A stretch of 42,424 bases of DNA from a virus (Duplodnaviria > Heunggongvirae > Uroviricota > Caudoviricetes): positions 1 to 42,424 of the IMG/VR virus record IMGVR_UViG_2563366953_000006. One strand, 5' to 3'. The translations under genes and the position numbers were made by a program. Below the pieces are notes generated by a model that was given only the letters and a program-made list of their open reading frames with translations, searched no databases and was not told where the DNA came from. Within the stretch, counting starts at the first letter, position 1. Each line of letters starts with the position of its first letter. Below, piece after piece: positions 561 through 42,424 of this stretch.

Positions 561-636
561 CCCTTAAGTTCCTAGCCGCTTATCTATAACTATGGAAAAA
601 TGTTAACCCTGACTGTATGTTAACAAAGGGATGTAT

Positions 637-1845
637 ATGTCGGTTTTTCATAACTGGCTGCTTGATATCGCAAGCGGGAATTACTTTATCTACATCAAAC
701 GCCTTTCTGCAAACGACACAGGCGCAACAGGTGGCCATCAGGTCGGACTTTATATCCCCTCAAATATCGTTGAAAAGCTTTTTCCATCTATCAATCATAC
801 TCGCGAACTGAACCCTTCAGTCTTCCTTACTGCGCATGTATCATCCCATGATTGCCCTGATACCCAAGCACGCGCAATTTATTACAACAACCGTTATTTT
901 GGTAAGACCCGAAACGAAAAAAGAATTACGCGCTGGGGGAGAGGAAGTCCATTACAGAACCCTGAAAATACAGGAGCCCTGACAATTCTTGCCTTCAGGT
1001 TAAACGAACAGAACACTGACTGTTCCGAGGTAGATATATGGGTCTGCGTCAATCCCGATGAAGAGGATATCATCGAGTCTGCTATTGGCGAAATCATACC
1101 TGGAACCCTAATTTCCGGCCCTGCCGGACAAATTTTGGGCGGATTGTCTCTTCAGCAAACTCCAGTAAATCATAAATATGTTATTCCTGAAGACTGGAAG
1201 AAGCGTTTTCCTTCTGGAAACGAAATTATTCAATATGCTGCTGGCCATTATGCTAAAAACTCCAAGGATCCAGATGAGCAACTGATTGACCGTCGGCGTG
1301 TCGAGTATGATATTTTTCTACTCGTCGAGGAATTACATGTTCTTGATATTATTAAGAAAGGATTCGATTCTGTAGATGAGTTTATTGCATTAGCCAACTC
1401 TGTCAGTAATCGACGTAAATCAAGGGCAGGTAAATCACTTGAACTTCACCTAGAGAAGCTTTTTATCGAGCACGGACTACGGCATTTCTCCACTCAGGCA
1501 GTTACTGAAGGTAATAAAAAACCAGATTTCCTGTTTCCTTCAGCAGAGGCATATCATAACGTTGAATTTCCTGTAGAAAACTTACGTATGCTGGCAGTAA
1601 AGACCACCTGCAAAGATCGCTGGCGTCAGATACTGAATGAAGCAGATAAAATCCATCAGGTACATTTATTTACGCTGCAAGAAGGTGTTTCTTCAGCACA
1701 ATACCGAGAAATGAAAGATGCGGGTGTCAGACTCGTTGTACCATCAACTTTACATAAAAAATACCCAGAAGCAGTTAGAGAAGAATTAATAACGCTCGGA
1801 GCATTCATTACTGAGCTGATAGAACTTTACGCTGAACTATCATAG
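637..1845 (+). CDS. ecoRIIR: Type IIE restriction endonuclease, EcoRII-like (CCWGG)
   Basis: Protein MSVFHNWLLDIASGNYFIYIKRLSANDTGATGGHQVGLYIPS... is near-collinear with R.EcoRII as recalled (about 400 aa). Start taken at the second ATG (637), which has better spacing from the AGGGA Shine-Dalgarno; the ORF track starts at 631. Confidence 0.8.
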   Translation: MSVFHNWLLDIASGNYFIYIKRLSANDTGATGGHQVGLYIPSNIVEKLFPSINHTRELNPSVFLTAHVSSHDCPDTQARAIYYNNRYFGKTRNEKRITRWGRGSPLQNPENTGALTILAFRLNEQNTDCSEVDIWVCVNPDEEDIIESAIGEIIPGTLISGPAGQILGGLSLQQTPVNHKYVIPEDWKKRFPSGNEIIQYAAGHYAKNSKDPDEQLIDRRRVEYDIFLLVEELHVLDIIKKGFDSVDEFIALANSVSNRRKSRAGKSLELHLEKLFIEHGLRHFSTQAVTEGNKKPDFLFPSAEAYHNVEFPVENLRMLAVKTTCKDRWRQILNEADKIHQVHLFTLQEGVSSAQYREMKDAGVRLVVPSTLHKKYPEAVREELITLGAFITELIELYAELS

Positions 1846-1879: not shown

Positions 1880-3313
1880 TCAAGGCAGCCCAGTCTTACC
1901 AGCATCAGCAGAAACAGCTTTGAGGATATAGGGTTCCAGAAGTCTGGCAACGGCTTCAAATACTGGCACCACAACGGAGTTACCGAACTGCCGATATGAC
2001 TGAGTATCTGAAACCGGAATACGGAATGGTTTCCCTCCAGGTTTTTCAAACCCCATAAGGCGTGCGCACTCTCGGGGAGTCAGCCTGCGTGGTCGACGAG
2101 CCTGGTTACTCTCATTCATAAAGTCAGCCTCTCCCGTTGCCATATCCCAACCACGATCAATAAGAATTTCTGATCCGTCTTTGTGATATCTGGCAGAAAG
2201 TGTGCGTGCAATGCTTTCCTTATTCTCAGGATTGACCAACCCAAAGCCAAAACCATTCCCCTTGGCTGCATGCTTTTTGGCGTAGTTATAAAGGTACTCC
2301 CATAGTTTTGGCGTAAGTATATATTTACTGTCGACTACAGGCTCCAGCAATTCACCAAATGATGGGCGGTGTTCCGGATAAAAACGACTGATATCACGCA
2401 AGGTAAACCCCTTGTGAATATTCAGATCTCGTCTAAATCCGACCAGAACAATGCGTTCACGATGCTGAGGCAAAAAATGCTTCCCATCGATAATCTTTGG
2501 ATCGTTTTTTCCCATTTCTGCAGCATCGGCAACTTCGTAGCCCAGCTCGTCAAGGGTCTCCATAATGACTTTGAAAGTTTTACCCTTATCATGGCTCTTC
2601 AGATTTTTGACATTTTCCAGCACAAAAATTGCCGGTTTTTTTGCTCGTATAATACGTGCCACGTCAAAAAAAAGTGTTCCTTGTGCTTCACATTCAAAAC
2701 CATGCGCACGACCAAGTGAGTTTTTCTTACTAACACCAGCAAGGCTAAATGGCTGGCACGGGAACCCCGCAAGAAGCACATCATGATCCGGCACATGCTC
2801 ATCAATATATGCATAAGCATCCGTTTCCAATACATCGGTTTTATCACTCAGCGTGACTTCCCGAATATCGAGATTGAATTTATGCACCTGTTCATCGTTA
2901 AACCAGTTGGCCTTGTATGTACGCACAGCATCTTTATTCCATTCACTGGTAAAAACACACTGGCCTCCAATGGCCTCAAAACCTTTCCGTATCCCTCCAA
3001 TTCCAGCAAATAAGTCAATGAAGCGGAAAGCATATTCCGGATGGTTTGCAGGTGGTTCTGGTAGCATCTTACGCAGAAGAGACTCTTCTACTGAAGTCAA
3101 CGATTTTGGTAAACACTTGCCATTAATCCAGCGGTTAATGGTTTCACGGCTCCACTCATTTTTTCCGACTTTTCTCAGTAATTCAGCCACATACTTCTGA
3201 TCATAGATTTCCAGCACTTTCTCGATAAGCTTTTTATCATTTTCCTGTCGCAGCTTTTCTTCCGCCTCGGCTTCCTTCAGCAGATGCTGTGCCAACACTT
3301 CAAATTCAGACAT
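1880..3313 (-). CDS. ecoRIIM: DNA cytosine-5 methyltransferase, Dcm / M.EcoRII family
   Basis: Contains [17 protein letters not shown] (motif I), [11 protein letters not shown] (PC catalytic motif), ENVKNL and [10 protein letters not shown]; collinear with Dcm/M.EcoRII. Start placed at MSEFEV (3313), preceded by GGAGG; the ORF track extends to 3355. Confidence 0.88.
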
Positions 3314-3619
3314 AATTCCTCCAAGGGGTCTAATGGGTGAAACTCTATCACTCATTCAACCCAGAAGGAAATGTTTTATCTGGATATTTAAACAGTGACT
3401 ACAACGTAATCTAGCACTGGTGATGCTTTGTTAGGCATAGAGAATCATTCTATATACGACTAATGACAGAAAAACAGCAGACAAGTAGTTTGTTCATAAA
3501 TTAACGCATACTACGTGCCTACGGTTTTCGAGACCGGTCCAATCATCAAACGAAACATAAAATTAGCTCACATTATGAGGAAAGGTATCTTTTTGCGCTA
3601 TGTAAATTCAAAGGGTTAG

Positions 3620-4489
<870 letters not shown>

Positions 4490-7382: not shown

Positions 7383-7967
7383 TTACTCCGGATATTTAAA
7401 AATCACATAGGTATGCGACGGGCAGAGTTTGTTAAGCACACATTCGACAACGGTGTCCCCCCAGAAGCGCAGCGCGGAATCACAGGGATCGCCACATGTC
7501 ATCCAGGTGGTGTTGGTGGCGGCTGGCATGTTGACCTGCCAGTAATACCGCCATTCCGGCGCATTCACCGCGTCAGTACAGGCCGATGAGCAGGTGAACG
7601 TGCTTTTGTCGTATCGCGTGATGGTGGCGTCTGGTCTGCCCAGGGCAGCAAGCTGTGCAAGATAAAAATCCTCATTGATGCCGCCCGCCAGGTTAACCTT
7701 CGCATCCAGCCGTTGCTGACGCTGGCGAAGGGTCTGCGTCCCTGCCGGAATACATTCATCCGGCAGGCCGCACAGACGCTCCCAGCGGTTTATCAGTTCG
7801 GTGGTGGTGCGCGGATCCAGCTCCTGCATCAGGGCATCCGCACGCTGATGAACACGGGTTAATGACGGTGCCGCACCGGCAATCGCCGGATCGCTGGCTG
7901 ACCACGCCGGACCGGGCGGCAACAGTGCTGACAACAGACGGATGTAATCATCGTTTGTCACGTCCAT
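7383..7967 (-). CDS. Baseplate/tail protein, Mu gp48-like (DUF2313, YmfQ-like)
   Basis: Position between the J-like baseplate gene and the tail fibre, and size (~194 aa), as in Mu-like tail modules; family assignment from memory. Confidence 0.6.
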
Positions 7968-9016
7968 GAAATCGCCCCCAGAACCGCCAGTTCATTTTTC
8001 GCAATGGTGATATTGTCCGCCGGTGCAAGCAACTGATGGCTGTATTCCCCGTTCGCACCGGAAATCGCTTCACTGATACGTGACACCTTCAGTTCTCCCT
8101 GCGGATAACCATCACGCAGCAGGAACGAACGCAACTCCGCGGTGATGGCAGCCCGTATTTCCGGTGTGTCCGGCGTCACACGGATATGAAAATCCACCGT
8201 ATGTGCCACCGGCCTGAACACATACAAATCAGAGCCTGCCACCGGGGCCAGTGGCCCGATATGTTGTCTTGCCGCCGTTTCCGTTGATTCTTCCGGAATG
8301 GGATTAATCAGGTCACTGCTGGCAATCATCACACCGACAGTCCCCGTTCCCATCCAGTGTCGGTATGTCCATGCGCGGGTAATGCCAGGCACTTCTTTAG
8401 CCCAGACGACATAGTCCCCGTCAGCCCCGCCCTGCGGCGTCCAGTAATACCGCTCAATGACGCGGGCGCGCCACGTTTCCAGCTCTTCAGTATCAAATCC
8501 GCCTGTCAGGGTGTCAGCCACACCGGAAGACGGCAGACCATTCACCGGCGTGACCAGGATTAATGCCGTACCGTCGTCAGCGTTACCGACCGCACCTGCA
8601 CTTGAGCAGGCGATCGGCACGCGCAGGACACCACCGGAGCTGATTGCATCGTCAGTTGTCGTGTACTGCACCAGGTCATCGCGCTGAATAACACTCCCGG
8701 CAGTCACCTTCAGGCCATCGCTGACACCTTCCCAGCGCATATACCCGCTGGCAACCGTGGCTCCCTTGCGCGGACACCGTTTCATCGCAGCATGTCGCGC
8801 CAGCCAGGACTCATCGCACAGGTCAGGCAGCATATTCATTGCCAGATAATCGATGTAACCGTAGACCGTATGCAGCGCCGCCGCATACACCTTTGCCCGC
8901 ACGTCTTCATCCATGCGCCGGAGCGTGTCGCTGACGTCCAGCCTGGCGAATAAATCGTTACGGAGCATACTGATATTTTCTGCCAGCGTCGGGCGCTGAA
9001 ATTCACTGTCCGCCAT
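7958..9016 (-). CDS. Baseplate J-like protein (Mu gp47-like)
   Basis: Size (352 aa) and position in a conserved Mu-like baseplate gene order. Confidence 0.65.
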
Positions 9017-22006: not shown

Positions 22007-23740
22007 TTAAAGCGAGCGGATCCCATAGGACTCAATGTGGTCAGACAGCGTGTCTTCTTTCTCGTACAGCATGGCTCTGCCAACCGCCATAATCAGCGCA
22101 ACTGCACCGTCGATTTTGTTTTCCGCCTGCTCTTTGACGGGCTTCACCACATCATCGTTACCCGGAATGGTTTTGCCGACCACGTTGCCGATACACCAGG
22201 TCATGATGGGATTGCCATCATGATGAAAGCGCCCCGATTCAATTGCCGCTTCCAGCTCTTTCATCGGGTCGGACATGTTGGTGTAGTTCTGAATGATAGT
22301 GATGGGGTTCAGGTCTTCATCAGCAAGGTCATGTGACAACCCGGTCGCCCCGAAGGGGTCGATGGGTGACTCACTGACCGGGCTGATTTTGTTCGCCGCT
22401 TTGGCCACCTCGAGGATGTAGCGATAATCCACCTCCGCACCATCGGTAACGGTCAGAACCCCCATCTCCACCCATTTCTGAAAGCGTTCGGCTGTCCGGC
22501 GATCTTCATTTTTCTCAACGCTGTACACCGTGTCATACGGTACCCAGAAGCACGGAGCCACACTGTAGTAATGCGTTTTACCGTCAATCTCGCGGGTATA
22601 AAGTCGCGCCATACTGTTCATATCCAGCTTACGCGCCAGGTCAAAGGCCAGGATGCACGGTTGCCCCTCGAACTGCTCAAGGGACAGTGATTTATCCTCG
22701 CAGCTCTGCCAGCTCACCAGGTTGAAATACGCCGAACGCGCCGACACCCAGATATTGAGGTGCTTTGTTTTAAAGACGTTTGCCAGACGGGCGTTATTTT
22801 TCGCACGCTGCTGCTGACTTAACAAAAATTCGCGATAAACCGACACGCCAATATTCGGGTTAGCTTTTTCCAGCACCTGCGGGTCGGTCCAGTCGTCACC
22901 TTCATCAACGGTATAGATGATCCCGAACAGTTCATCGTTAGGCACCGAGCCGTTGAGCATCTCGATAACTTCCCGCCGCTTGTCGTAGCACGGCCCCTCA
23001 ATGTTGTACCCGGCAGTAGTAATGGCCCACATCAGTGGCTGACGTCGCGCCCCCATCCCGGTAAGCATCGTGGTGTAAAGCGCATCTGTGGCGTGCTCGT
23101 GATATTCATCCACCACCGCACAGTGGGGTGATGAACCATCACCGGGGTTACCAATCAGCGGTTCAAAACGCGCACCATCCTCCGGACGGTTCATGTTTGA
23201 GGCGTTAACCTCAATCCCGAACGCTTCCGTCAGCATGGGTGTGCGTTTACACATCAGTCTTGCCGGACGAAAGACTTCCCATGCCTGTTTCTCCGTCGTG
23301 GCACCGGAATACACTTCCGCGCCGAACTCGTTATCACAGGCAAAACAATACAGGGCGACACCGGCAGAGATTGCCGATTTGCCGTTCTTACGGGGGATTT
23401 CGGTATACACCTCCCGGAAGCGGCGCAGCCGGGAGCCTTTATTGACCCAGCCAAACGCGCAGCAGATCACAAAGAGCTGCCACGGCTCCAGCGTGATGGG
23501 CATCCTCTTAAATGCCCACTCACCCTTGGTGTGCGGCAACAGCTGAATAAATTTGGCGGCCCGTTCAGCCAGGTCCTTGTCGAAGCGGTAACGAAACGAC
23601 TTACTTTTTTCCGCCATCAGGTCATCAAGATGGCGCTGGCAGGCCTGAATCACAAACTGGCAGGCCACAATCTTTCCGCGCACGACATCCCGGGCATACT
23701 GATTGGCAGCATTTACGTTGGGGTAAGATTTCCGGCTCAT
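22007..23740 (-). CDS. Terminase large subunit
   Basis: 577 aa, follows the small subunit with an ATGA overlap; length and position fit TerL. Confidence 0.85.
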
Positions 23741-24240
23741 GATTCGATGATTTTCAGAAACGGGTTAGTGGCTTTCTTCTTCCCCGCCAGGCCAATCAGA
23801 CGCTGGCGGCTGCTGGGGTCGAGTCCGAGCATTGCCCCCGTACTGCTCATCTCGGACTCCTGTTCTTTTTTGGCGGTCAGCTCCGGATTTTTGACCATAC
23901 CGCCCATTGCACCGGTGATGGTGTTGCCCTGTCTGGCAATATTTTTCACGGCACGTCGCCAGAACTCGTAGGCCACGCACCACCGCTCAAGAACCGCGAG
24001 GTCAGTCACGCACAGCAGGCCCTGACCGCAGAGTTCTTTAGTTGTCAGTTGCCACATGATCGTAGCGAGAGGGAGATCTTCTTCAGCGAACCACTCCGGT
24101 GGCTCAACACCTTTGATGGGCGTAAAAACAGGTTCATCTTTATTCAGGGCTCGCTTGCCGGGGTTTCCGGCCAGCGCCTTGCGCGCCGTTGGCTTGGGGC
24201 GACGCCCGGAACGCCCCGCCGTTCCAGCCATATGCGGCAC
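23737..24240 (-). CDS. Terminase small subunit (P27 family-like)
   Basis: 167-aa basic protein immediately upstream of TerL. Confidence 0.7.
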
Positions 24241-24356: not shown

Positions 24357-24707
24357 TCACTTTAACCGTTCACGGGCCGTCTTCGCCTTATGACACGGCC
24401 AACACAGACTCTGCAGATTACAGTCGGCATCAGTGCCGCCATGCGCTTTAGGGATGATGTGGTCAACGGTTTTCGCCTCACGCACCACACCGGCACGCAG
24501 ACATAACTGACATAAACCTTTGTCACGCTTCAGCACACGCGCGCGGATAGCGTCCCACTTCGAACCATAACCGCGCTGATGACGGGACTGACCTGGCTTG
24601 TATTGCTTCCAGCCTTCGCTTTTGTGGCTTTCGCAGTAGCCTGACGGGTCTGTGGTTGTAGAGCGGCAGCCGCGAACACGGCAGGCTTTTGGGGTTCGTG
24701 GTGGCAT
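24357..24707 (-). CDS. HNH endonuclease (terminase-associated)
   Basis: C-terminal HNH motif ...CQLCLRAG...DHIIPKAHGGTDADCNLQSLCWPCHKAK; lies directly upstream of the terminase genes as in HK97-like phages. Confidence 0.85.
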   Translation of the reverse strand: MPPRTPKACRVRGCRSTTTDPSGYCESHKSEGWKQYKPGQSRHQRGYGSKWDAIRARVLKRDKGLCQLCLRAGVVREAKTVDHIIPKAHGGTDADCNLQSLCWPCHKAKTARERLK

Positions 24708-24786
24708 TGGTAAGCTCCAATAAAAAAGCCACCATCGATTGCTAGTGGCTTGGCATCTACTAATGTTACTAATGTGAAGAGTAGGT

Positions 24787-25545
24787 TTATTTTTTCTTCT
24801 TATTTAACTTATCTAAATTGACGGGATCTTTCCCTGTGGCAGCTAAACACCAAAAAGAATAACTCTTTTGCATGACATAGGTTCTAATTCTCTCTAATGT
24901 TTCATTATATTTTTTCTCAACAACCTGTATCGCATGTTCAAATAAATTAATCATATCAACATGCTCGTCCTCGACACCAATCATGCTCAGTTGTTTTCTA
25001 TCTGTCACTGCTTGATAAAATGTTTTCCCATTTTTCCTTATTAGTAACAATGAAGTTTCTGCTGACTCATAGTCTTGGTTGCCGCTATGTGCTGCAAAAT
25101 TATGCCTGTAGTTAATAATACAGTCATGCAACCCAAAATATTCAGAATCAAGCCAATCACGCTCCATCTTTAACTTTCTCCCTTTAGCTTCAGAGAAAGC
25201 TTTACCATAAAACGTTAGGCTTGCCACAAATAACGCTCTAATTTCACTTGATAAATCTAGATCAAGTATATTCCCGTATAACTTGCCATCTGTCCTTAAT
25301 TCGTTTCTCCCTGCCAGTTCATTAGCTATTTGGTACCACTCTTTAGCACTTTTTAAGTCCCTATGAATTAGGGACAGTGAAGATGCTCTATCGGCAATAC
25401 GCCCACTCAATTTTATGCGATCTACAATTTCATTATTGAATGTATAAACCGCTTTAAATTCCCCCGTTTCGGAATCAATATAATATTCAACATCTAACCC
25501 TTCATATGATTCACACCCGGGACCTTCTAATTTTTTTCTTTTCAT
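24787..25545 (-). CDS. AT-rich orphan gene, hypothetical 252-aa protein (moron; candidate accessory/defence function)
   Basis: Single ORF sitting between Rz and the HNH/terminase block; composition visibly more AT-rich than the flanking phage genes; no recognisable family from sequence. Confidence 0.6.
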   Translation of the reverse strand: MKRKKLEGPGCESYEGLDVEYYIDSETGEFKAVYTFNNEIVDRIKLSGRIADRASSLSLIHRDLKSAKEWYQIANELAGRNELRTDGKLYGNILDLDLSSEIRALFVASLTFYGKAFSEAKGRKLKMERDWLDSEYFGLHDCIINYRHNFAAHSGNQDYESAETSLLLIRKNGKTFYQAVTDRKQLSMIGVEDEHVDMINLFEHAIQVVEKKYNETLERIRTYVMQKSYSFWCLAATGKDPVNLDKLNKKKK

Positions 25546-25626
25546 ATAGAATATTCATATACGTTTCAATTCTCAGTCAGCATAGTAGAAAAAAAAGATG
25601 TCCAGATCCATACATCGAAAGCAATT

Positions 25627-26091
25627 TTATTTTTCACACTGACTAGAGATATAGTCCTGCAATGCTCTTATCTGTTTATAACTGATTTCAATTCTCTCTC
25701 TGAGGGTGAAATAATCCCGTTGAGCGGTGTCAGTAAGTCGGGGGGCGGTAGCATCATCCAGGCTGGTGGTAATGGTCGTTGATTGCACTCTCGGGCAACT
25801 AGCGGCGAGGAACAGCCGCTTAGTGCCAACAGCAACATCACGCTGAAGCTGTTCAATAGTTGCTTTAGCATTTGCAAGTTCTCCGGTGTATTTCGCATCG
25901 AGCGCAGAAACATCACGCTGGCGCTGCTGCATCTCAGTAATGGTGGCGTTCGCCTGGCTGAGTTTTTCCTTCGCTTTATCGCGCTGTTCTTTGTAGGCGA
26001 TGGCGTTATCACGATAATGATTAACAGCCCATGATAGGCAGACGATGGTGCAGATAACCAGAGAGGACAGAATCGCAGTTACTCTACTCAT
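25627..26091 (-). CDS. Rz-like i-spanin
   Basis: N-terminal TM helix ([23 protein letters not shown]) then coiled-coil; immediately after the endolysin; contains an embedded +1-frame lipoprotein ORF. Confidence 0.8.
25668..25838 (-). CDS. Rz1-like o-spanin (lipoprotein) embedded in Rz
   Basis: [14 protein letters not shown]... has a lipobox (LSGC) and is proline-rich; fully nested in the Rz gene in another frame. Confidence 0.7.
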
Positions 26092-26566
26092 ATAGCTGAA
26101 TTTCTCTGACCGTTCCGCCCGATTCTTTGAATTTTTCAATCAGGCTGTCAACCTTATGTTCGAACTGACCATAACCAGCGCCCGGCAATGACGCCCAGAT
26201 ATTGCTGCAACGATCAATAGCCTGACGGATATCGCCGCGATCAATCATCGGTAAAGCACCACGCTCTTTAATCTGCTGCAATGCCACAGCATCCTGGCTT
26301 TTTGGAGAGAAGTCTTTCAGCCCAAGCTGCTTACGGTAAGCATCCCACCAGCGTGAAAGAAGCTGATAACGTCCTGCGGCTGTTGATTTAAGTTTCGGGT
26401 TTAGCGTGACAAGTTTGCGAGGGTGATCGGAGTAATCAGTGAACAGTTCACCTCCGACAATAACGTCATAACCGTGGTTACGTGTCGGTTGTCGCCCGTT
26501 ATCCGTTCCTTCTGACCATGCCACCATATCGAGGAAAGCTTTACGCTGGGAATTTAGTACCTGCAT
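26084..26566 (-). CDS. Endolysin, lambda R-like lytic transglycosylase
   Basis: [132 protein letters not shown] is near-identical to lambda R as recalled. Confidence 0.92.
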
Positions 26567-26569
26567 AAA

Positions 26570-26896
26570 TTACTCCTTAGAGCCACCAAACTTATTACCG
26601 ATTACTCTCATTGCAGCCCCACGAATAGCATCGACCCCGATCAGCCCAACGCCGCCACCAATGGCAACAGAAAGAGATTTAGGCCATCCGACATACTCAA
26701 GAGCGGATGCAAAAGTCAGCGTCAGAGCACCACAGAGCAAAATCTCGAGCGTTTTTCGTTTCCAGCCACCACCACCGCCAAAATAGGCAATGCGCAAGCC
26801 AGCCATAACGATCGACATAATCACTGCGCCCAGCGGTGTGTCTCCACGCCACCAGCTCTGGACCAACTCCAGCCAGGTATTTGGGTTATGAGGCAT
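26570..26896 (-). CDS. Holin
   Basis: 108-aa membrane protein with hydrophobic segments and a charged C-terminus, directly upstream of the endolysin. Confidence 0.75.
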   Translation of the reverse strand: MPHNPNTWLELVQSWWRGDTPLGAVIMSIVMAGLRIAYFGGGGGWKRKTLEILLCGALTLTFASALEYVGWPKSLSVAIGGGVGLIGVDAIRGAAMRVIGNKFGGSKE

Positions 26897-27192: not shown

Positions 27193-28134
27193 ATGAGTAC
27201 AGAAAATAAGAATAAAACCAGGCGAGTGAGAGTTGGTTTTTTCACTGGTAATGGAAGCAAAAAAGATGGCACATCTGCTGCAAAACTAGCCTTTGAGCAA
27301 ATGACCACAGCAGATACTGTAACTTTTCCAATAACTTACACAACAGACACCCCAAATCGAGGGTTAAAGTTAGTTATTCTTCAAAAAGATACCACACTGC
27401 AATGTTACTTTGGTTACGTATCGTGGAGAAGGGAATGCCTACTACCGTTCATCGAGGATGCTACAGGTAGTGAGAGAACAATTCCTTTAAATGATAAAGA
27501 TTCTGTAGTTGAAAGAACATATTTTATCTATTACTACGAAACGGACTTATTAGCTATGACCCTCAACCATATAGGGCCCAAAGTAAATGATCTGGCATTC
27601 ATTTTGTATAACAAAACTGATTTAAAAAGCGTCACTTTTGAAGCCATTTGGAAACAAGAGAGCATGAAGGAACTGCTTGAGGACGGAAATATCCTACGTA
27701 GTTTCGATCTTATAGTTGCTGCTCCAAGAAACTTTAACAAAGCTAATTATAAGATTAAAAACCCTTTAGCTAATGAAATTATTGACATGGTTGTTGGTAT
27801 GGGCGGGTCGCATCTAAGATTAAATATGCGAGGTCGGATTCGCCCGAAAAAACAAGGGTTTAACTATCTAAAAACTTCTGTCACCGATGCTATTAAGGAA
27901 CTACTTGAACTTTTTCCAAAAGGTTCTGGAGGTCTAAAAATTAAAAAAATTGATGTAACAGAGCCATCCAATAGAACGCCCAAAAGTCTACTTGACCAAG
28001 TATTGGTCAGTACAAAGACAATCATTGTCAAAAGCGGTTATCCATCCGATTCTGATATCAGAACGGCGATGATATCTGCTAAAATTGATAACGCGAACTA
28101 TCTTGCACAGTATGAGCTCGCTAGCAGAGACTAA
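27193..28134 (+). CDS. Hypothetical 313-aa soluble protein, first gene of an AT-rich two-gene cassette (candidate defence/abortive-infection sensor)
   Basis: ORF on the strand opposite to all late genes, in the Q-to-lysis moron position; no Walker A motif and no recognised domain; followed 9 bp later by a 4-TM protein gene. Confidence 0.65.
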   Translation: MSTENKNKTRRVRVGFFTGNGSKKDGTSAAKLAFEQMTTADTVTFPITYTTDTPNRGLKLVILQKDTTLQCYFGYVSWRRECLLPFIEDATGSERTIPLNDKDSVVERTYFIYYYETDLLAMTLNHIGPKVNDLAFILYNKTDLKSVTFEAIWKQESMKELLEDGNILRSFDLIVAAPRNFNKANYKIKNPLANEIIDMVVGMGGSHLRLNMRGRIRPKKQGFNYLKTSVTDAIKELLELFPKGSGGLKIKKIDVTEPSNRTPKSLLDQVLVSTKTIIVKSGYPSDSDIRTAMISAKIDNANYLAQYELASRD

Positions 28135-28155
28135 TAACCAAGCATGGAGGACACA

Positions 28156-28605
28156 ATGAGAGAATTAGCCACTTTTCTCTGGAAATGCGTCCTCTGGATT
28201 CTGTTGACCTATGCAGCGACAAAACTGTTTAAACCGATGAAGCATGCTGACGTACTCACAACAGCGGGGGTGCTCTCGACTATATCAGGCATCCTGTTTG
28301 GTTTTGTTCTGGCTGCAATATCTATATTTAGTAGTGCAAACAGCGATAAGGAAGGAGCAATTAATGCCCTTAAGCAAAACAACGTGTTACCAACTCTGGT
28401 AAATAGATTACTTTCAACAGGGTTAACTCTCATCGTCGCATGTATATTTCCATTGATAGCGATGTTTCTACCTGATGATGTTATTGTTGCGGGCAAACCT
28501 ATTGATTTCCTGTTCATACTGTTAGGCTTATCCTCCCTTATAATTTCGCTATATACCTTCGGAAGGTGTTGGTTAGTGTTACGAAAAATCTTCCCCCACT
28601 TGTGA
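28156..28605 (+). CDS. Small polytopic membrane protein (4 predicted TM helices), second gene of the cassette (candidate membrane effector)
   Basis: Four hydrophobic stretches (res ~8-27, 38-62, 88-108, 120-146 of the 153-aa track ORF); start placed at MRELATF (28156), preceded by GGAGG; track start is 28144. Confidence 0.65.
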   Translation: MRELATFLWKCVLWILLTYAATKLFKPMKHADVLTTAGVLSTISGILFGFVLAAISIFSSANSDKEGAINALKQNNVLPTLVNRLLSTGLTLIVACIFPLIAMFLPDDVIVAGKPIDFLFILLGLSSLIISLYTFGRCWLVLRKIFPHL

Positions 28606-28640: not shown

Positions 28641-29009
28641 CTAAGCGTCCATTTCAAGGTTAACATCCAACATTGAAAGGCAACCATCAATAAATCCTTC
28701 GGCTAGTTGTATTTCTATGCGTACCAATTTTTCATCCTTTCCACGCACCTTTGCAATCTTACGCTTGGATATTCTGTATAAATAATGTGCCACAAGCAGC
28801 GAGTGCTCATCTGGCTTTTTTTGCTTTAGACGAGCAAGACAACCTTCAATAATTAATGCATCACTATCTGAACAAGCCTGACGTGTTTTGCTTGTGTAGG
28901 GAAGAAGCCCCTTAAACCCAGCAGCTATAGGCGAATAGTCTACTCCAGAACTATCACTCGCCGCCCATGCTCCCCAACGCTCCAGAACCATCTGAATATC
29001 ACGCATCAA
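28641..29009 (-). CDS. Antitermination protein Q-like (small Q family)
   Basis: 122-aa protein at the junction of early and late regions, upstream of the lysis genes; resembles the short prophage Q family as recalled. Confidence 0.55.
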   Translation of the reverse strand: MMRDIQMVLERWGAWAASDSSGVDYSPIAAGFKGLLPYTSKTRQACSDSDALIIEGCLARLKQKKPDEHSLLVAHYLYRISKRKIAKVRGKDEKLVRIEIQLAEGFIDGCLSMLDVNLEMDA

Positions 29010-39293: not shown

Positions 39294-39500
39294 ATGCTGA
39301 ACCTCGATTGTGTTCCAATCTCAACTTATTGCAAAGAAACTGGCGAAACTCCTGAAGCAATAAACAAACGTGTACAGCGCGGTGTTTGGCGTGAAGGTGT
39401 TCAGGTTTTAAAGGTTGAAGGCGTTAAGGAGAGGTGGATTGATCTTAGTGAGGTTGCAAAATGGGCCAGACAAAACTGCTCAAACTACCGCGCGGCGTAA
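39294..39500 (+). CDS. Excisionase-like protein (Xis)
   Basis: 68-aa protein immediately upstream of and overlapping the integrase; the EAINKRVQRGVWREGVQ segment resembles lambda Xis ETVRRWVRE; GGAG RBS. Confidence 0.5.
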   Translation: MLNLDCVPISTYCKETGETPEAINKRVQRGVWREGVQVLKVEGVKERWIDLSEVAKWARQNCSNYRAA

Positions 39501-40633
39501 CAATCAGGAAACACCGCCTGGGCGAAACGATCAATATAACTTTCACCTATAAAGGAGTTAAATGTCGTGAGCCTCTTTCCAATCTGGAAGTAATACCAAA
39601 GAACATAAAATACGCCGAGCGCACACTCGGCGAAATTCATAATAAGATCGAAAGGGGAACATTCATTTATGCGGAATATTTTCCCCGTTCTGCTCGTTTG
39701 AAAATTTTTGGTAATGCTGCTGCAGGCAAAACGGTAAAAATGTACCTGGACGAATACCTTGAAATCTGCGAAACGAGAAAACTTTCACCCTCTACGATTG
39801 GTGGTTATAAAAAATGCCGTAGTGCGTTAGCCTCACTCCACATTTGCCCTGCAAGTGAATTAACACCAGCAATCCTGAAAGCGTGGATTCAAAGCCAGAA
39901 AACGACCTTAAAAACAATTCGCAACCAGTTATCTTTCCTGCGGTCAGCACTTGATGAAGCCGTAACCGATGGGGTACTTCAAATTAACCCCGTATCGTTG
40001 GTAACTGCTTCGCGCTACCAAAGTGATAAGTCAGAAGCAGAAAGCAGCTACGTGGTTGATCCGCTATCACCAGCAGAAGTTGATGCATTACTAGCAGCAG
40101 CCGGAAACAAACAATGGGAAAATCTGTTCCGGTTCGCTATACATACAGGCCTGCGTAGTTCTGAATTATGTGCCCTTCGATGGCGTGATATCGACTTTGT
40201 TGGAAAAACTGCCCATGTCCAGAGCGCAAGTGTTGTCGGTGTTATCAAAGGGACAAAGACAAAAGCAGGTACTCGGAAAGTTGAACTGACAGAAGAGGCA
40301 ATGTTGGCGCTGATAAATCAGAAGCCATTTACATTCATGAAGGATGCTACTGTCTTTGAAGATCCAAAGACCAATAAGCCTTGGGCAAGTGCTGATGCAA
40401 TTAGGAAAAAAGCATGGGTGCCAACATTGCGAAAAGCAGGTATTCGTTACAGAAACCCATATCAAACCAGGCATACATTCGCCACCAGCCATATCAGCCG
40501 AGGAGCAAACCTGTTTTGGCTTGCAGCTCAAATGGGGCATAAAGGGCCGGAGATGCTTTTCAGGCACTATGGTTCGTATCTTAAAGAGTATGATAACTTT
40601 ACATCGATAAATCATTTGCATAATCATAATTAA
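39461..40633 (+). CDS. Tyrosine site-specific integrase (phage integrase family)
   Basis: 390 aa; C-terminal catalytic residues in TGLRSSELCALRW..., YQTRHTFAT and MGHKGPEMLFRHYGSYL (R...H..R...Y); adjacent to the right repeat. Confidence 0.9.
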   Translation: MGQTKLLKLPRGVTIRKHRLGETINITFTYKGVKCREPLSNLEVIPKNIKYAERTLGEIHNKIERGTFIYAEYFPRSARLKIFGNAAAGKTVKMYLDEYLEICETRKLSPSTIGGYKKCRSALASLHICPASELTPAILKAWIQSQKTTLKTIRNQLSFLRSALDEAVTDGVLQINPVSLVTASRYQSDKSEAESSYVVDPLSPAEVDALLAAAGNKQWENLFRFAIHTGLRSSELCALRWRDIDFVGKTAHVQSASVVGVIKGTKTKAGTRKVELTEEAMLALINQKPFTFMKDATVFEDPKTNKPWASADAIRKKAWVPTLRKAGIRYRNPYQTRHTFATSHISRGANLFWLAAQMGHKGPEMLFRHYGSYLKEYDNFTSINHLHNHN

Positions 40634-40640
40634 TATTTAA

Positions 40641-40670
40641 TAATCCCCGCATTTTTAAAATCGGGGATTT
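40641..40670 (+). terminator. Hairpin downstream of int (possible terminator or int-binding arm site)
   Basis: ATCCCCG-CATTTTTAAAAT-CGGGGAT inverted repeat. Confidence 0.35.
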
Positions 40671-40674
40671 AAAG

Positions 40675-41454
40675 TTGATTACAATTACATTCGACAAACT
40701 AATCACCTACATATCTTCAGTTGGTACTTTCATTTCAGCAATTGCTGCATTATATGCAATATGGTTAACGATATTTCAAAGAAGGCTCTCTTATAAACCC
40801 AATTTAGTGATAGACACTTTAAATGTCAAGATGAATGTTAACGATTTCAACGGTTTTCATGTTGATATCTTACAAGCCCCTACGCTTCCACAAACAAAAT
40901 TTTCAAACATAGGATTGGGGGCGGCAATTTCACTTAGATATCATTGGGATTTTAATTATAAAAAAAACATAAATCTATACTTAGAGTTGTTTTCGAAAAA
41001 ATTCAAAAAAGAAGATAAATCTTTTACAACCGACTCCCAGTATGGAATGTTCAAAATAATAAAAGAAAGAAAAGTATATATGTACAATACTTTATCGACA
41101 CCTTACGATATTGATTTTTCGTTACCATATAGTATAGATAAGAAGTCAAAAAACATTTTTGTACCAACCGCGGCAATTGATATTCTATTGAATATAGCAT
41201 ATCTTTCACATAGACTTAAATTAGTCGGTTCTTCATCATTCACTGGTCCAAAATTAATTATTGAATATCAAGATATAGAGGGTAAAACTAAAAAAGTCAC
41301 TTGGCAAACAAAATTGGAACGTGGAGTGGCACGTTTCAGTGGTGATAATATGGAGGCAGATTTTGCACTACGGTTTACACCTGTACCAGAGAAATGGACT
41401 ACAAAAGGTCTAGAGAAGATACGCAAAAGCGCCGCAAACGCCATGTTCAGATAA
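40675..41454 (+). CDS. AT-rich cargo gene: hypothetical 259-aa protein with N-terminal TM anchor
   Basis: Lies between int and the right repeat; very AT-rich; apparent TTG start; N-terminal hydrophobic helix ITYISSVGTFISAIAALYAIWLTIF; no recognised domain. Confidence 0.5.
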   Translation: MITITFDKLITYISSVGTFISAIAALYAIWLTIFQRRLSYKPNLVIDTLNVKMNVNDFNGFHVDILQAPTLPQTKFSNIGLGAAISLRYHWDFNYKKNINLYLELFSKKFKKEDKSFTTDSQYGMFKIIKERKVYMYNTLSTPYDIDFSLPYSIDKKSKNIFVPTAAIDILLNIAYLSHRLKLVGSSSFTGPKLIIEYQDIEGKTKKVTWQTKLERGVARFSGDNMEADFALRFTPVPEKWTTKGLEKIRKSAANAMFR

Positions 41455-41488
41455 ATATATAATTAAAACAACAGGTTAATATTTTTCA

Positions 41489-41655
41489 GACACGGGTTCA
41501 ACTCCCGCCAGCTCCACCAATCATGATTGAACGGTGCAAGGACAACACCAACAAAAACAGGAAGTTAGAAGTCTCAGCAAGACACCGACCAGACGGTGAG
41601 GAGACAAAAAAGGATACGCAAAGGAGCCGCGGCTCCTGGTGACATGAAAGCCCAC
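41489..41655. repeat. Right copy of imperfect direct repeat (attR-like), carrying a partial duplicate of the ssrA 3' end
   Basis: Direct repeat of 372..539 with about 10 mismatches; lies just downstream of the integrase and the AT-rich cargo gene. Confidence 0.8.
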
Positions 41656-41671
41656 AGATGTGCAATGCCGT

Positions 41672-42424
41672 TCACTTAAGCGGAGCGGTGCTGCGTTTCA
41701 CCGGATAACGGGTTTTTGATATCTTAACTGCCCTCGGCCTTGATGGTCGGGGGCGTTTTGTTATGAACACAACTTCCAGAGCACCCCGCAGATGCTCCAG
41801 TCGTTTCGGGATGGTCCCCGGTGATGCCGTATTTCCCAGCACTATCATTTCTGTCGCGATAAACTGGAACGCGAACTTAAAGCTGATTTCTGACGCCGCT
41901 TTTTTGTGTTTCTCAGCCGCTTTTGTTGCCTCACGCCGTATCAGGTTGTAAGCCAGCAACATGCCCCACACCTCCTGTTCCAGCAGCTCAACCTTACGGC
42001 TTCTCAGCACCAGGGCATTGTTCAGCAGGCTGCTTTTCAGGTTTCTGAACCCGACTTCGATTTCCCATCGTGAATGGTAAAGTTCCGCTACCTCTTTTGC
42101 TTTGTAGCGGTCTGCCGGGAGTGATGTCAGCACCGTTTTCTCCACACCTTTCACCTCATAAGTCACCGCCCGGGCGTACCAGAACTCTGGCAGTGCAGGA
42201 TTCTTTTTCCTCGCCTGCAGCGACACCTTCAGTTTCAGAAGCCTGTCTCCGGGACCGTAACTTTCTTCTGTTTCTGCCGCGATATTCTTCCACGCAGGCA
42301 GTAGCCAGTGGCGGTTACAACCCTGCTGGTTCAGCGTCAGCAGCAGGTCTGCGCTGTAAAAGAGCTTGTCAAACAGCGTAATGGAGTTATCCGGGATGGT
42401 GGCGAGCATGGAGTGAGCCAGCAC
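41672..42424 (-). CDS. IS4-family DDE transposase, C-terminal part (5' end lies beyond the window)
   Basis: C-terminal YHSRWEIEVGFRNLKSSL matches the IS4-family Y-(2)-R-(3)-E-(6)-K signature; the ORF runs off the window edge. Confidence 0.7.
   Translation of the reverse strand: MLAHSMLATIPDNSITLFDKLFYSADLLLTLNQQGCNRHWLLPAWKNIAAETEESYGPGDRLLKLKVSLQARKKNPALPEFWYARAVTYEVKGVEKTVLTSLPADRYKAKEVAELYHSRWEIEVGFRNLKSSLLNNALVLRSRKVELLEQEVWGMLLAYNLIRREATKAAEKHKKAASEISFKFAFQFIATEMIVLGNTASPGTIPKRLEHLRGALEVVFITKRPRPSRPRAVKISKTRYPVKRSTAPLK

Follow-up and report, generated by a model that had tools for sequence, protein, structure and literature searches.

Solo HEPN proteins of prophages

Two solo HEPN proteins encoded by prophages are proven effectors of abortive infection (PMC13043305; PMC11087260). 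HepS (STM14_3211), from the Salmonella prophage Gifsy-1, forms a tetramer that inhibits itself until the siphovirus tail-tip protein J opens it, and it then cleaves tRNA anticodon loops (PMC13043305). Tha-1 and Tha-2 form a tail-activated HEPN abortive-infection defence of Staphylococcus aureus prophages, which is silenced during induction by an antisense-encoded inhibitor (PMC11087260). Here, these systems are compared with a gene of the IMG/VR record IMGVR_UViG_2563366953_000006, a tailed virus of the Caudoviricetes. Positions 1 to 42,424 of the record were analysed and are called the window below. The gene, called the cargo ORF (open reading frame), lies on the minus strand at 24787-25545 between the lysis genes and an HNH/terminase block, and encodes a protein of 252 aa. 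Its identification as a horizontally acquired prophage cargo gene ("moron") in a variable slot is supported by the evidence below, and its product is predicted to be HEPN-like.

The catalytic motif of HEPN domains is Rx4-6H at the end of helix 3, in which the arginine is followed by a polar residue (N, D, or H). HEPN domains are four-helix up-down bundles in which helices 2 and 3 are separated by an insert; Csx1 also has a beta-hairpin directly after the motif. HEPN RNases act independently of metal, from a composite site to which two protomers contribute (PMC3710099). Stand-alone HEPN families were listed by Anantharaman et al. (2013; PMC3710099). These families and the lactococcal AbiD/F, AbiJ, AbiU2, and AbiV are HEPN proteins of mobile elements, either stand-alone or simple in organisation, and act in abortive infection. 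Their Pfam models match neither the cargo ORF product nor its relatives.

The cargo ORF product is similar to HepS and Tha in logic (a solo gene, prophage cargo, and a HEPN-type motif) but not in architecture. HepS is a stand-alone gene without a partner and is often found on prophages. The cargo ORF and its relatives likewise stand without a partner, as judged from 45 loci and 135 nearest neighbours. PSI-BLAST-level homology to HepS, in the usage of its authors, was not found, although no direct comparison was made, and the LT2 Gifsy-1 record contains no ORF with the R100/H105 expected of HepS. Tha, at 301 aa, begins with a long unstructured stretch and is controlled by ith, a small antisense gene that overlaps its own. 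No sequence similarity to Tha was detected, although no comparison aimed at it was made. A Tha-like antisense inhibitor was rejected for the present family because the antisense ORFs of 35 aa or more vary from locus to locus in both position and sequence (10 loci compared). HepT (DUF86) has the same four-helix core as the models of the cargo ORF product, and its motif likewise lies where helix 3 ends. However, HepT is always paired with an MNT antitoxin that AMPylates it, and no partner gene is present here. A HEPN/MNT toxin-antitoxin pair was also rejected, based on the lack of a conserved neighbour and of a DUF86 match and on the sequence RHNFAAHSG, which lacks the tyrosine of RNxxxHxY. No DUF86-type protein was found in a regular-expression search of 0.86 Mb of fetched loci.

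A replaceable cassette between lysis and packaging genes

The region between the spanin gene Rz and the HNH gene differs between prophages that are otherwise syntenic (Table 1). In alignments of both junctions across six slot versions, similarity stops at the Rz stop codon and is regained at TTTTTATTGGAGC / ATGCCACCACGAACCCCA of HNH, about 13-20 nt before the HNH start. Because the junctions are sharp at both ends, the exchanged unit is a replaceable cassette of about 900 bp. With the same Rz and HNH/terminase backbone, other prophages carry in this position a DUF6979 gene with a 67-aa ORF, a KilA-N gene with an 85-aa ORF, a gene for a 287-aa DUF6236 protein, two unrelated ORFs, or iss. The SfI slot contains a 124-aa ORF.

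The cargo gene is present in 23 of 5,426 complete E. coli genomes, and every copy is intact and at least 99.6% identical. The HNH backbone gene is found in 1,066 of the same genomes, and the cargo gene occurs in about 2% of prophages with this HNH/terminase backbone. One of the 23 copies and its HNH neighbour are on a plasmid record of 100,861 bp (NZ_CP104632.1, 81506..82890), which could be a phage-plasmid or carry a prophage inserted in a plasmid.

The composition of the cargo ORF also sets it apart. Its GC content is 0.354 (GC3 0.31), whereas its flanks are at about 0.50-0.55 and the window mean is 0.50; individual values are 0.54 for terL, 0.57 for HNH, and 0.47 for Rz. Only 15 of 834 sliding 759-nt windows are as AT-rich or more so, and all 15 fall within the cargo ORF island or a second island beside the integrase gene. 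The original prediction, which was made from the sequence alone, described a 252-aa ORF of markedly lower GC than its neighbours, placed in a known cargo hotspot between the lysis cassette and the HNH/terminase genes. The coordinates, strand, neighbours, and composition of the ORF all agree with this description, and the slot is indeed variable among related prophages. The gene is far from invariant in the phage family, as the contrast between 23 genomes and the roughly 1,066 with the HNH backbone makes clear.

In the window, the cassette is closed by a terminator-like hairpin (the hairpin proper spans 24751..24726) that lies inside the variable segment. The SfI/DUF6979 slot version has a different hairpin in the same place, followed by the same TTTTTATTGGAGC. 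More generally, each slot version (24714..24751 in the window and the equivalent positions in loci L001 and L010) ends in its own GC-rich hairpin and then TTTTTATTGGAGC. This segment carries the HNH ribosome-binding site, and the T-run together with the ribosome-binding site may be the recombination joint of the cassette.

These properties correspond to those of lambdoid morons: discrete insertion, deviant composition, patchy presence, and a terminator-like hairpin are all found, and a promoter of its own was not detected by scan. In lambda, bor lies between Rz and cos. Both bor and iss resemble the cargo ORF in slot, deviant composition, and a discrete cassette with a terminator-like hairpin. 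However, the products of bor and iss are lipoproteins of the outer membrane, and their genes lie on the opposite strand, whereas the cargo ORF encodes a cytoplasmic protein on the strand of the late operon.

A family that moves as a single gene

The original prediction called the gene an orphan, which is incorrect. At E≤1e-3, 197 homologues are found in 90% clusters and 898 in 50% clusters. Almost without exception they are single-domain proteins of 220-260 aa, and all are named "hypothetical". The cargo ORF itself corresponds to RefSeq WP_001407090.1 ("hypothetical protein") in a near-identical region of E. coli FREC5. The sole database family that covers the relatives is PHROG 8440, to which no function is assigned and which matches the protein at E=3e-117. 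Scans of the protein with Pfam, NCBIfam, and PADLOC (PADLOC-DB 2.0.0) gave no match (E≤1 for Pfam and PADLOC), which places it outside the anti-phage systems catalogued in PADLOC. Pfam scans of 65 family members at E≤5 returned scattered noise only.

The family is found in gamma- and beta-proteobacteria and in a few other phyla. Its members come mainly from environmental beta- and gamma-proteobacteria, such as Methylomonas, Thiobacillus, Massilia, and Pseudomonas. Within lambdoid prophages, the slot from Rz to the terminase holds a family gene in three other backbones (50-60% identity), one of which has a lambda-type GpA terminase and lacks HNH. In Escherichia phage 2H10 (NC_049950.1, locus L003, 4905..5624), a member with 29% identity is located between int and xis, a position that corresponds to that of Tha in staphylococcal prophages. 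The same divergent 2H10-type version is seen about 1.6-2 kb from the ends of at least 12 viral contigs (IMG/VR loci L083-L096). Pseudomonas prophages carry the gene on the opposite strand within their early-left regions.

Members are also found outside tailed prophages. In a 10.9-kb filamentous (Tubulavirales) prophage of Vibrio cyclitrophicus (Vibrio phage 10N.286.54.E4_PE002, PQ189351.1, locus L002), the gene (7482..8219, 33% identity) follows a homologue of the zot-like gene I. This copy carries the depositor's note "endonuclease" and has the same GC as its flanks. In Burkholderia, the family gene adjoins a Tlde1 toxin gene on the chromosome, and other chromosomal copies form isolated islets among housekeeping genes. 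A total of 38 IMG/VR viral contigs carry a member. The GC content of the family gene is 10-19 points below that of its flanks in eight of ten other hosts.

No neighbouring family is shared by these loci beyond closely related backbones when all genes within 5 kb at 45 loci are clustered, and a Pfam scan of the 135 nearest neighbours reveals no recurring family. The absence of a conserved neighbour indicates that the gene travels, and presumably works, alone. In one group of closely related Pseudomonas prophages (L021-L024, 7766..8329), the family gene is followed on the same strand by two small ORFs, of about 81 aa and of 63-89 aa. Because other lineages lack these ORFs, they are unlikely to be partners. 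In an Ignavibacteriota metagenome-assembled genome (L062, 3360..4163), the family gene is 237 nt downstream of the gene for a member of the established HEPN family TIGR02391/Ymh. The other neighbours that occur once include Abi_alpha and an ABC-3C middle component. These associations with Ymh, Abi_alpha, and ABC-3C are too few to be counted as enrichment. Overall, the family hops as a single gene among tailed prophages (in at least three accessory slots), filamentous prophages, and chromosomal sites.

Predicted fold and conserved residues

The cargo ORF product is a soluble protein of 29 kDa with a pI of 7.0. Its maximum hydropathy over 19 residues is 1.08, and it has no transmembrane segment. 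An AlphaFold2 model built on a 65-sequence alignment (A1) has a pLDDT of 88.7 and a pTM of 0.84; two such models, both of the monomer, were considered. The predicted core is a four-helix up-down bundle that has an insert separating helices 2 and 3, and a beta-hairpin (residues 160-185) is inserted into the bundle directly after a candidate HEPN-type motif. In both models, this Rx5H motif occupies the C-terminus of the third long helix and the beginning of the loop that follows. Its position and spacing agree with the HEPN pattern, and H148 provides the polar residue after the arginine. The best structural matches to both models in the Protein Data Bank (PDB) are the HepT structures 7ae2, 5yep, and 8xdj. 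The N-terminal strand region varies in length across the family and is the least conserved part of alignment A1. It is possible that these strands serve as a sensor or oligomerisation surface.

Conservation was assessed in 238 full-length family members with a median identity of 30% to the query. R147 and H153 are identical in all 238, Y113 and H140 are also invariant, and D63, W70, K115, R123, and G155 are conserved in about 99%. The original prediction had stated that the protein has no recognisable motif. This is true of domains defined in Pfam, NCBIfam, and PADLOC, but it overlooks the R-x5-H pair, H140, and Y113, none of which varies in the family. The models suggest a core that is a HEPN-like four-helix bundle, in a protein that is not a sequence member of any defined HEPN family.

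A predicted solo abortive-infection RNase

Single-gene defence, one of the roles first proposed for the cargo ORF, is the leading hypothesis. It is predicted from the solo gene, the HEPN-like fold with its motif, and a machine-learning prediction. In its specific form, the product would be a solo HEPN-like abortive-infection RNase that is functionally similar to HepS or Tha, and this reading has about an even chance of being correct. It builds on features observed in this analysis, namely cargo status, slot variability, solo status, mobility, the fold prediction, and motif invariance. The machine-learning evidence comes from DefensePredictor, which lists the cluster of WP_001407090.1 in Table S10 as a "Putative novel defense gene" with a mean log-odds of 8.2 (strict cut-off, 4). 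The cluster is among 1,041 uncharacterised clusters predicted to be defensive in 3,000 E. coli genomes. It is outside the units tested experimentally in that study, whose overall validation rate is 45%. No motif string matched the DefensePredictor tables of validated proteins in a check limited to exact substrings, and the main texts of the literature searched by accession and PHROG identifier do not mention the protein.

The active site likely comprises R147-x5-H153, the invariant H140, and the near-invariant D63, K115, and R123. The protein would act as a metal-independent RNase and serve as a single-gene effector of abortive infection or superinfection exclusion. It would be held inactive, probably as an oligomer, and be switched on by a component of the infecting phage. 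Cleavage of tRNA, mRNA, or rRNA would then leave the infected cell without phage yield. The carrier phage would have to be spared, or the gene silenced, despite the location in the late operon. More tentatively, the protein may be the founding member of a new family, comprising about 900 clusters, of HEPN-like immune nucleases that act solo and cleave RNA when a phage protein triggers a beta-sheet sensor, although this fuller proposal is somewhat doubtful. The sensor sheet would consist of the N-terminal strands and the hairpin inserted right after the catalytic motif.

Several results weigh against a HEPN-like defence nuclease. Sequence and profile comparisons do not connect the protein to an established HEPN family. 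Foldseek finds nothing significant in the PDB, a sequence search of the PDB gives only a chance match to BRE5 (E 0.04), and the family profile has no hit among PDB sequences at E≤10. HEPN models in Pfam match neither the protein (E≤1) nor 65 members (E≤5). Ymh (PF09509) is the sole HEPN family that was compared profile to profile, and hhalign gives a probability of 0.3% against its alignment, which was built from the chance neighbour in L062. Within the motif, the five-residue spacer with RHN differs from the commonest form, RNxxxH. Neighbours in non-phage genomes are mostly housekeeping genes and show no enrichment for defence islands. The alternative cargo of the slot matches no defence system catalogued in PADLOC apart from a weak PDC-S22 match of the KilA-N protein, so the slot is a cargo hotspot and not a proven defence hotspot. 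Finally, the gene shares its strand with the late operon and has no detected promoter of its own. The spacer upstream of the ORF contains no confident sigma-70 promoter or Shine-Dalgarno sequence by promoter scan and sequence inspection. Promoter scans gave chance-level results overall: the region upstream of the window ORF is empty, and the Citrobacter locus has a weak site only.

Alternative functions

The late-operon location is central to the first alternative, in which the product, a nuclease of HEPN-like or other type, works for its own phage, or the gene is a selfish toxin or addiction element, and host defence is not its role. An example would be an RNase expressed late that shuts down host or competitor gene expression in lytic growth. 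The gene is embedded in the late operon and co-oriented with it in the window and in loci L004, L014, and L016. In L014 and L016, HNH begins just 10-20 nt past the gene, leaving no space for a terminator. The lack of a detected promoter and of defence-island enrichment is also in line with this alternative. However, in Pseudomonas prophages and phage 2H10 the gene is outside late operons, often on the strand opposite to its neighbours, and it also occurs in a non-lytic filamentous prophage and in chromosomal islets. Moreover, presence in only about 2% of prophages with the backbone counts against a core phage function. This alternative is unlikely, although it is one of the main rivals.

A second alternative concerns the fold. 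Generic four-helix bundles score within about 1 Z unit of the HEPN match, which also counts against the HEPN assignment. The resemblance to HEPN could reflect generic four-helix geometry in a non-catalytic helical-bundle sensor, adaptor, or regulator that cleaves no RNA. This is rather less likely still.

The conserved histidines could also belong to a metal-dependent phosphohydrolase or nuclease of HD-domain-like type, in which H140-D141 and H148/H153 would act on DNA or nucleotide signals. H140 is invariant, D141 is at least 90% conserved in the 65-sequence alignment, and the all-alpha core has several conserved His, Asp, and Glu residues. An HD-like enzyme is improbable.

A Bor/Iss-type lysogenic-conversion or virulence factor, as the original prediction also allowed, is very improbable: iss does occupy the same slot in some E. 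coli prophages, but the protein lacks a signal peptide, a lipobox, and any transmembrane segment, and environmental Proteobacteria are the main source of the family. An accessory to lysis or to HNH/terminase-dependent packaging has an equally slight chance, because the Rz-HNH position recurs in three backbones but the gene shows no homology to lysis or structural proteins, is missing from about 98% of prophages with the same HNH/terminase genes, and is found with a different terminase type, in an inovirus, in early regions, and in chromosomal islets.

The prophage and its other cargo

According to the FREC5 annotation, this E. coli prophage belongs to the e14/SfI type: its head is HK97-like, its tail is contractile, and ymf genes are present. 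Table 1 lists the features around the cargo ORF.

Table 1. Features of the cargo ORF and the surrounding late region, in window coordinates.
Feature	Position	Strand	Details
terL, large terminase	22007..23740	-	
terS, P27-type small terminase	23737..24240	-	Terminase_4; adjoins HNH
HNH endonuclease, backbone boundary	24357..24707	-	Pfam HNH, E=5e-15
Terminator-like hairpin and T-run	24717..24751	-	9-bp stem; between ORF stop and HNH start; from scan
Replaceable cassette	24727..25626	.	Differs between otherwise syntenic prophages
Cargo ORF	24787..25545	-	ATG start, 252 aa; from ORF list
Four-helix up-down bundle (predicted)	24871..25401	-	Helices 49-80, 96-115, 134-151, 196-225
Candidate HEPN-type Rx5H motif	25087..25107	-	R147-H148-N149-F150-A151-A152-H153
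N-terminal beta-strand region, residues 1-45	25411..25545	-	Strands 4-7, 13-23, 30-36 in model
Upstream spacer	25546..25626	-	AT-rich, 81 nt, 3' of Rz stop
Rz-type spanin, backbone boundary	25627..26139	-	Pfam PF03245, E=2e-40
Rz1-like lipoprotein ORF embedded in Rz	25668..26012		+1 frame; lipobox LSGC
Endolysin	26084..26566	-	
Holin	26570..26896	-	
Antiterminator Q	28641..29009	-	

A second AT-rich cassette (27193..28605, plus strand, GC 0.39) is located between antiterminator Q and the holin, on the strand opposite to the late operon. It encodes a 313-aa protein (PHROG 7651, WP_001446998.1) and a multi-pass membrane protein of 153 aa (PHROG 8552). Pfam and PADLOC match neither of them. The related lambdoid locus L014 carries the Kiwa genes KwaA and KwaB in the same Q-holin slot and on the same strand. 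A Kiwa identity for the cassette in the window was rejected because BLASTP reveals no similarity. Its two genes make up a candidate defence system.

Beyond the tail-fibre genes, the left end of the window encodes an EcoRII-type restriction endonuclease with EcoRII-N and EcoRII-C domains, a C5 cytosine methyltransferase in convergent orientation, and a GIY-YIG protein similar to LEM-3 (631..1845, plus strand; 1880..3355, minus strand; 3665..4489, plus strand). These look like a restriction-modification system at or beside the prophage end. With the EcoRII system in the window and Kiwa in a relative, it is clear that this phage lineage transports defence cargo. AT content peaks at about 40100..41700, immediately after the integrase gene (39461..40633), where the GC falls to 0.30 over 759 nt, the lowest in the window. 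A 259-aa ORF without a Pfam match (40675..41454, plus strand) is another cargo gene beside the integrase gene.

Implications

The favoured role of the cargo ORF product, a solo HEPN-like abortive-infection RNase, is not surprising in kind, since solo HEPN effectors borne by prophages are already known. A gene embedded in the late operon of its own phage raises the question of self-immunity, which HepS and Tha answer differently. The protein is short and soluble and has clear candidate residues (H140, R147, and H153), which makes the hypothesis cheap to test. If it is confirmed, the lysis-terminase junction of e14/SfI-like prophages would be a further cargo slot worth mining, in a window that also holds two more AT-rich cassettes and an EcoRII restriction-modification system. 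A widespread single-gene family for which Pfam, NCBIfam, and PADLOC have no model would then join the catalogue of anti-phage systems.
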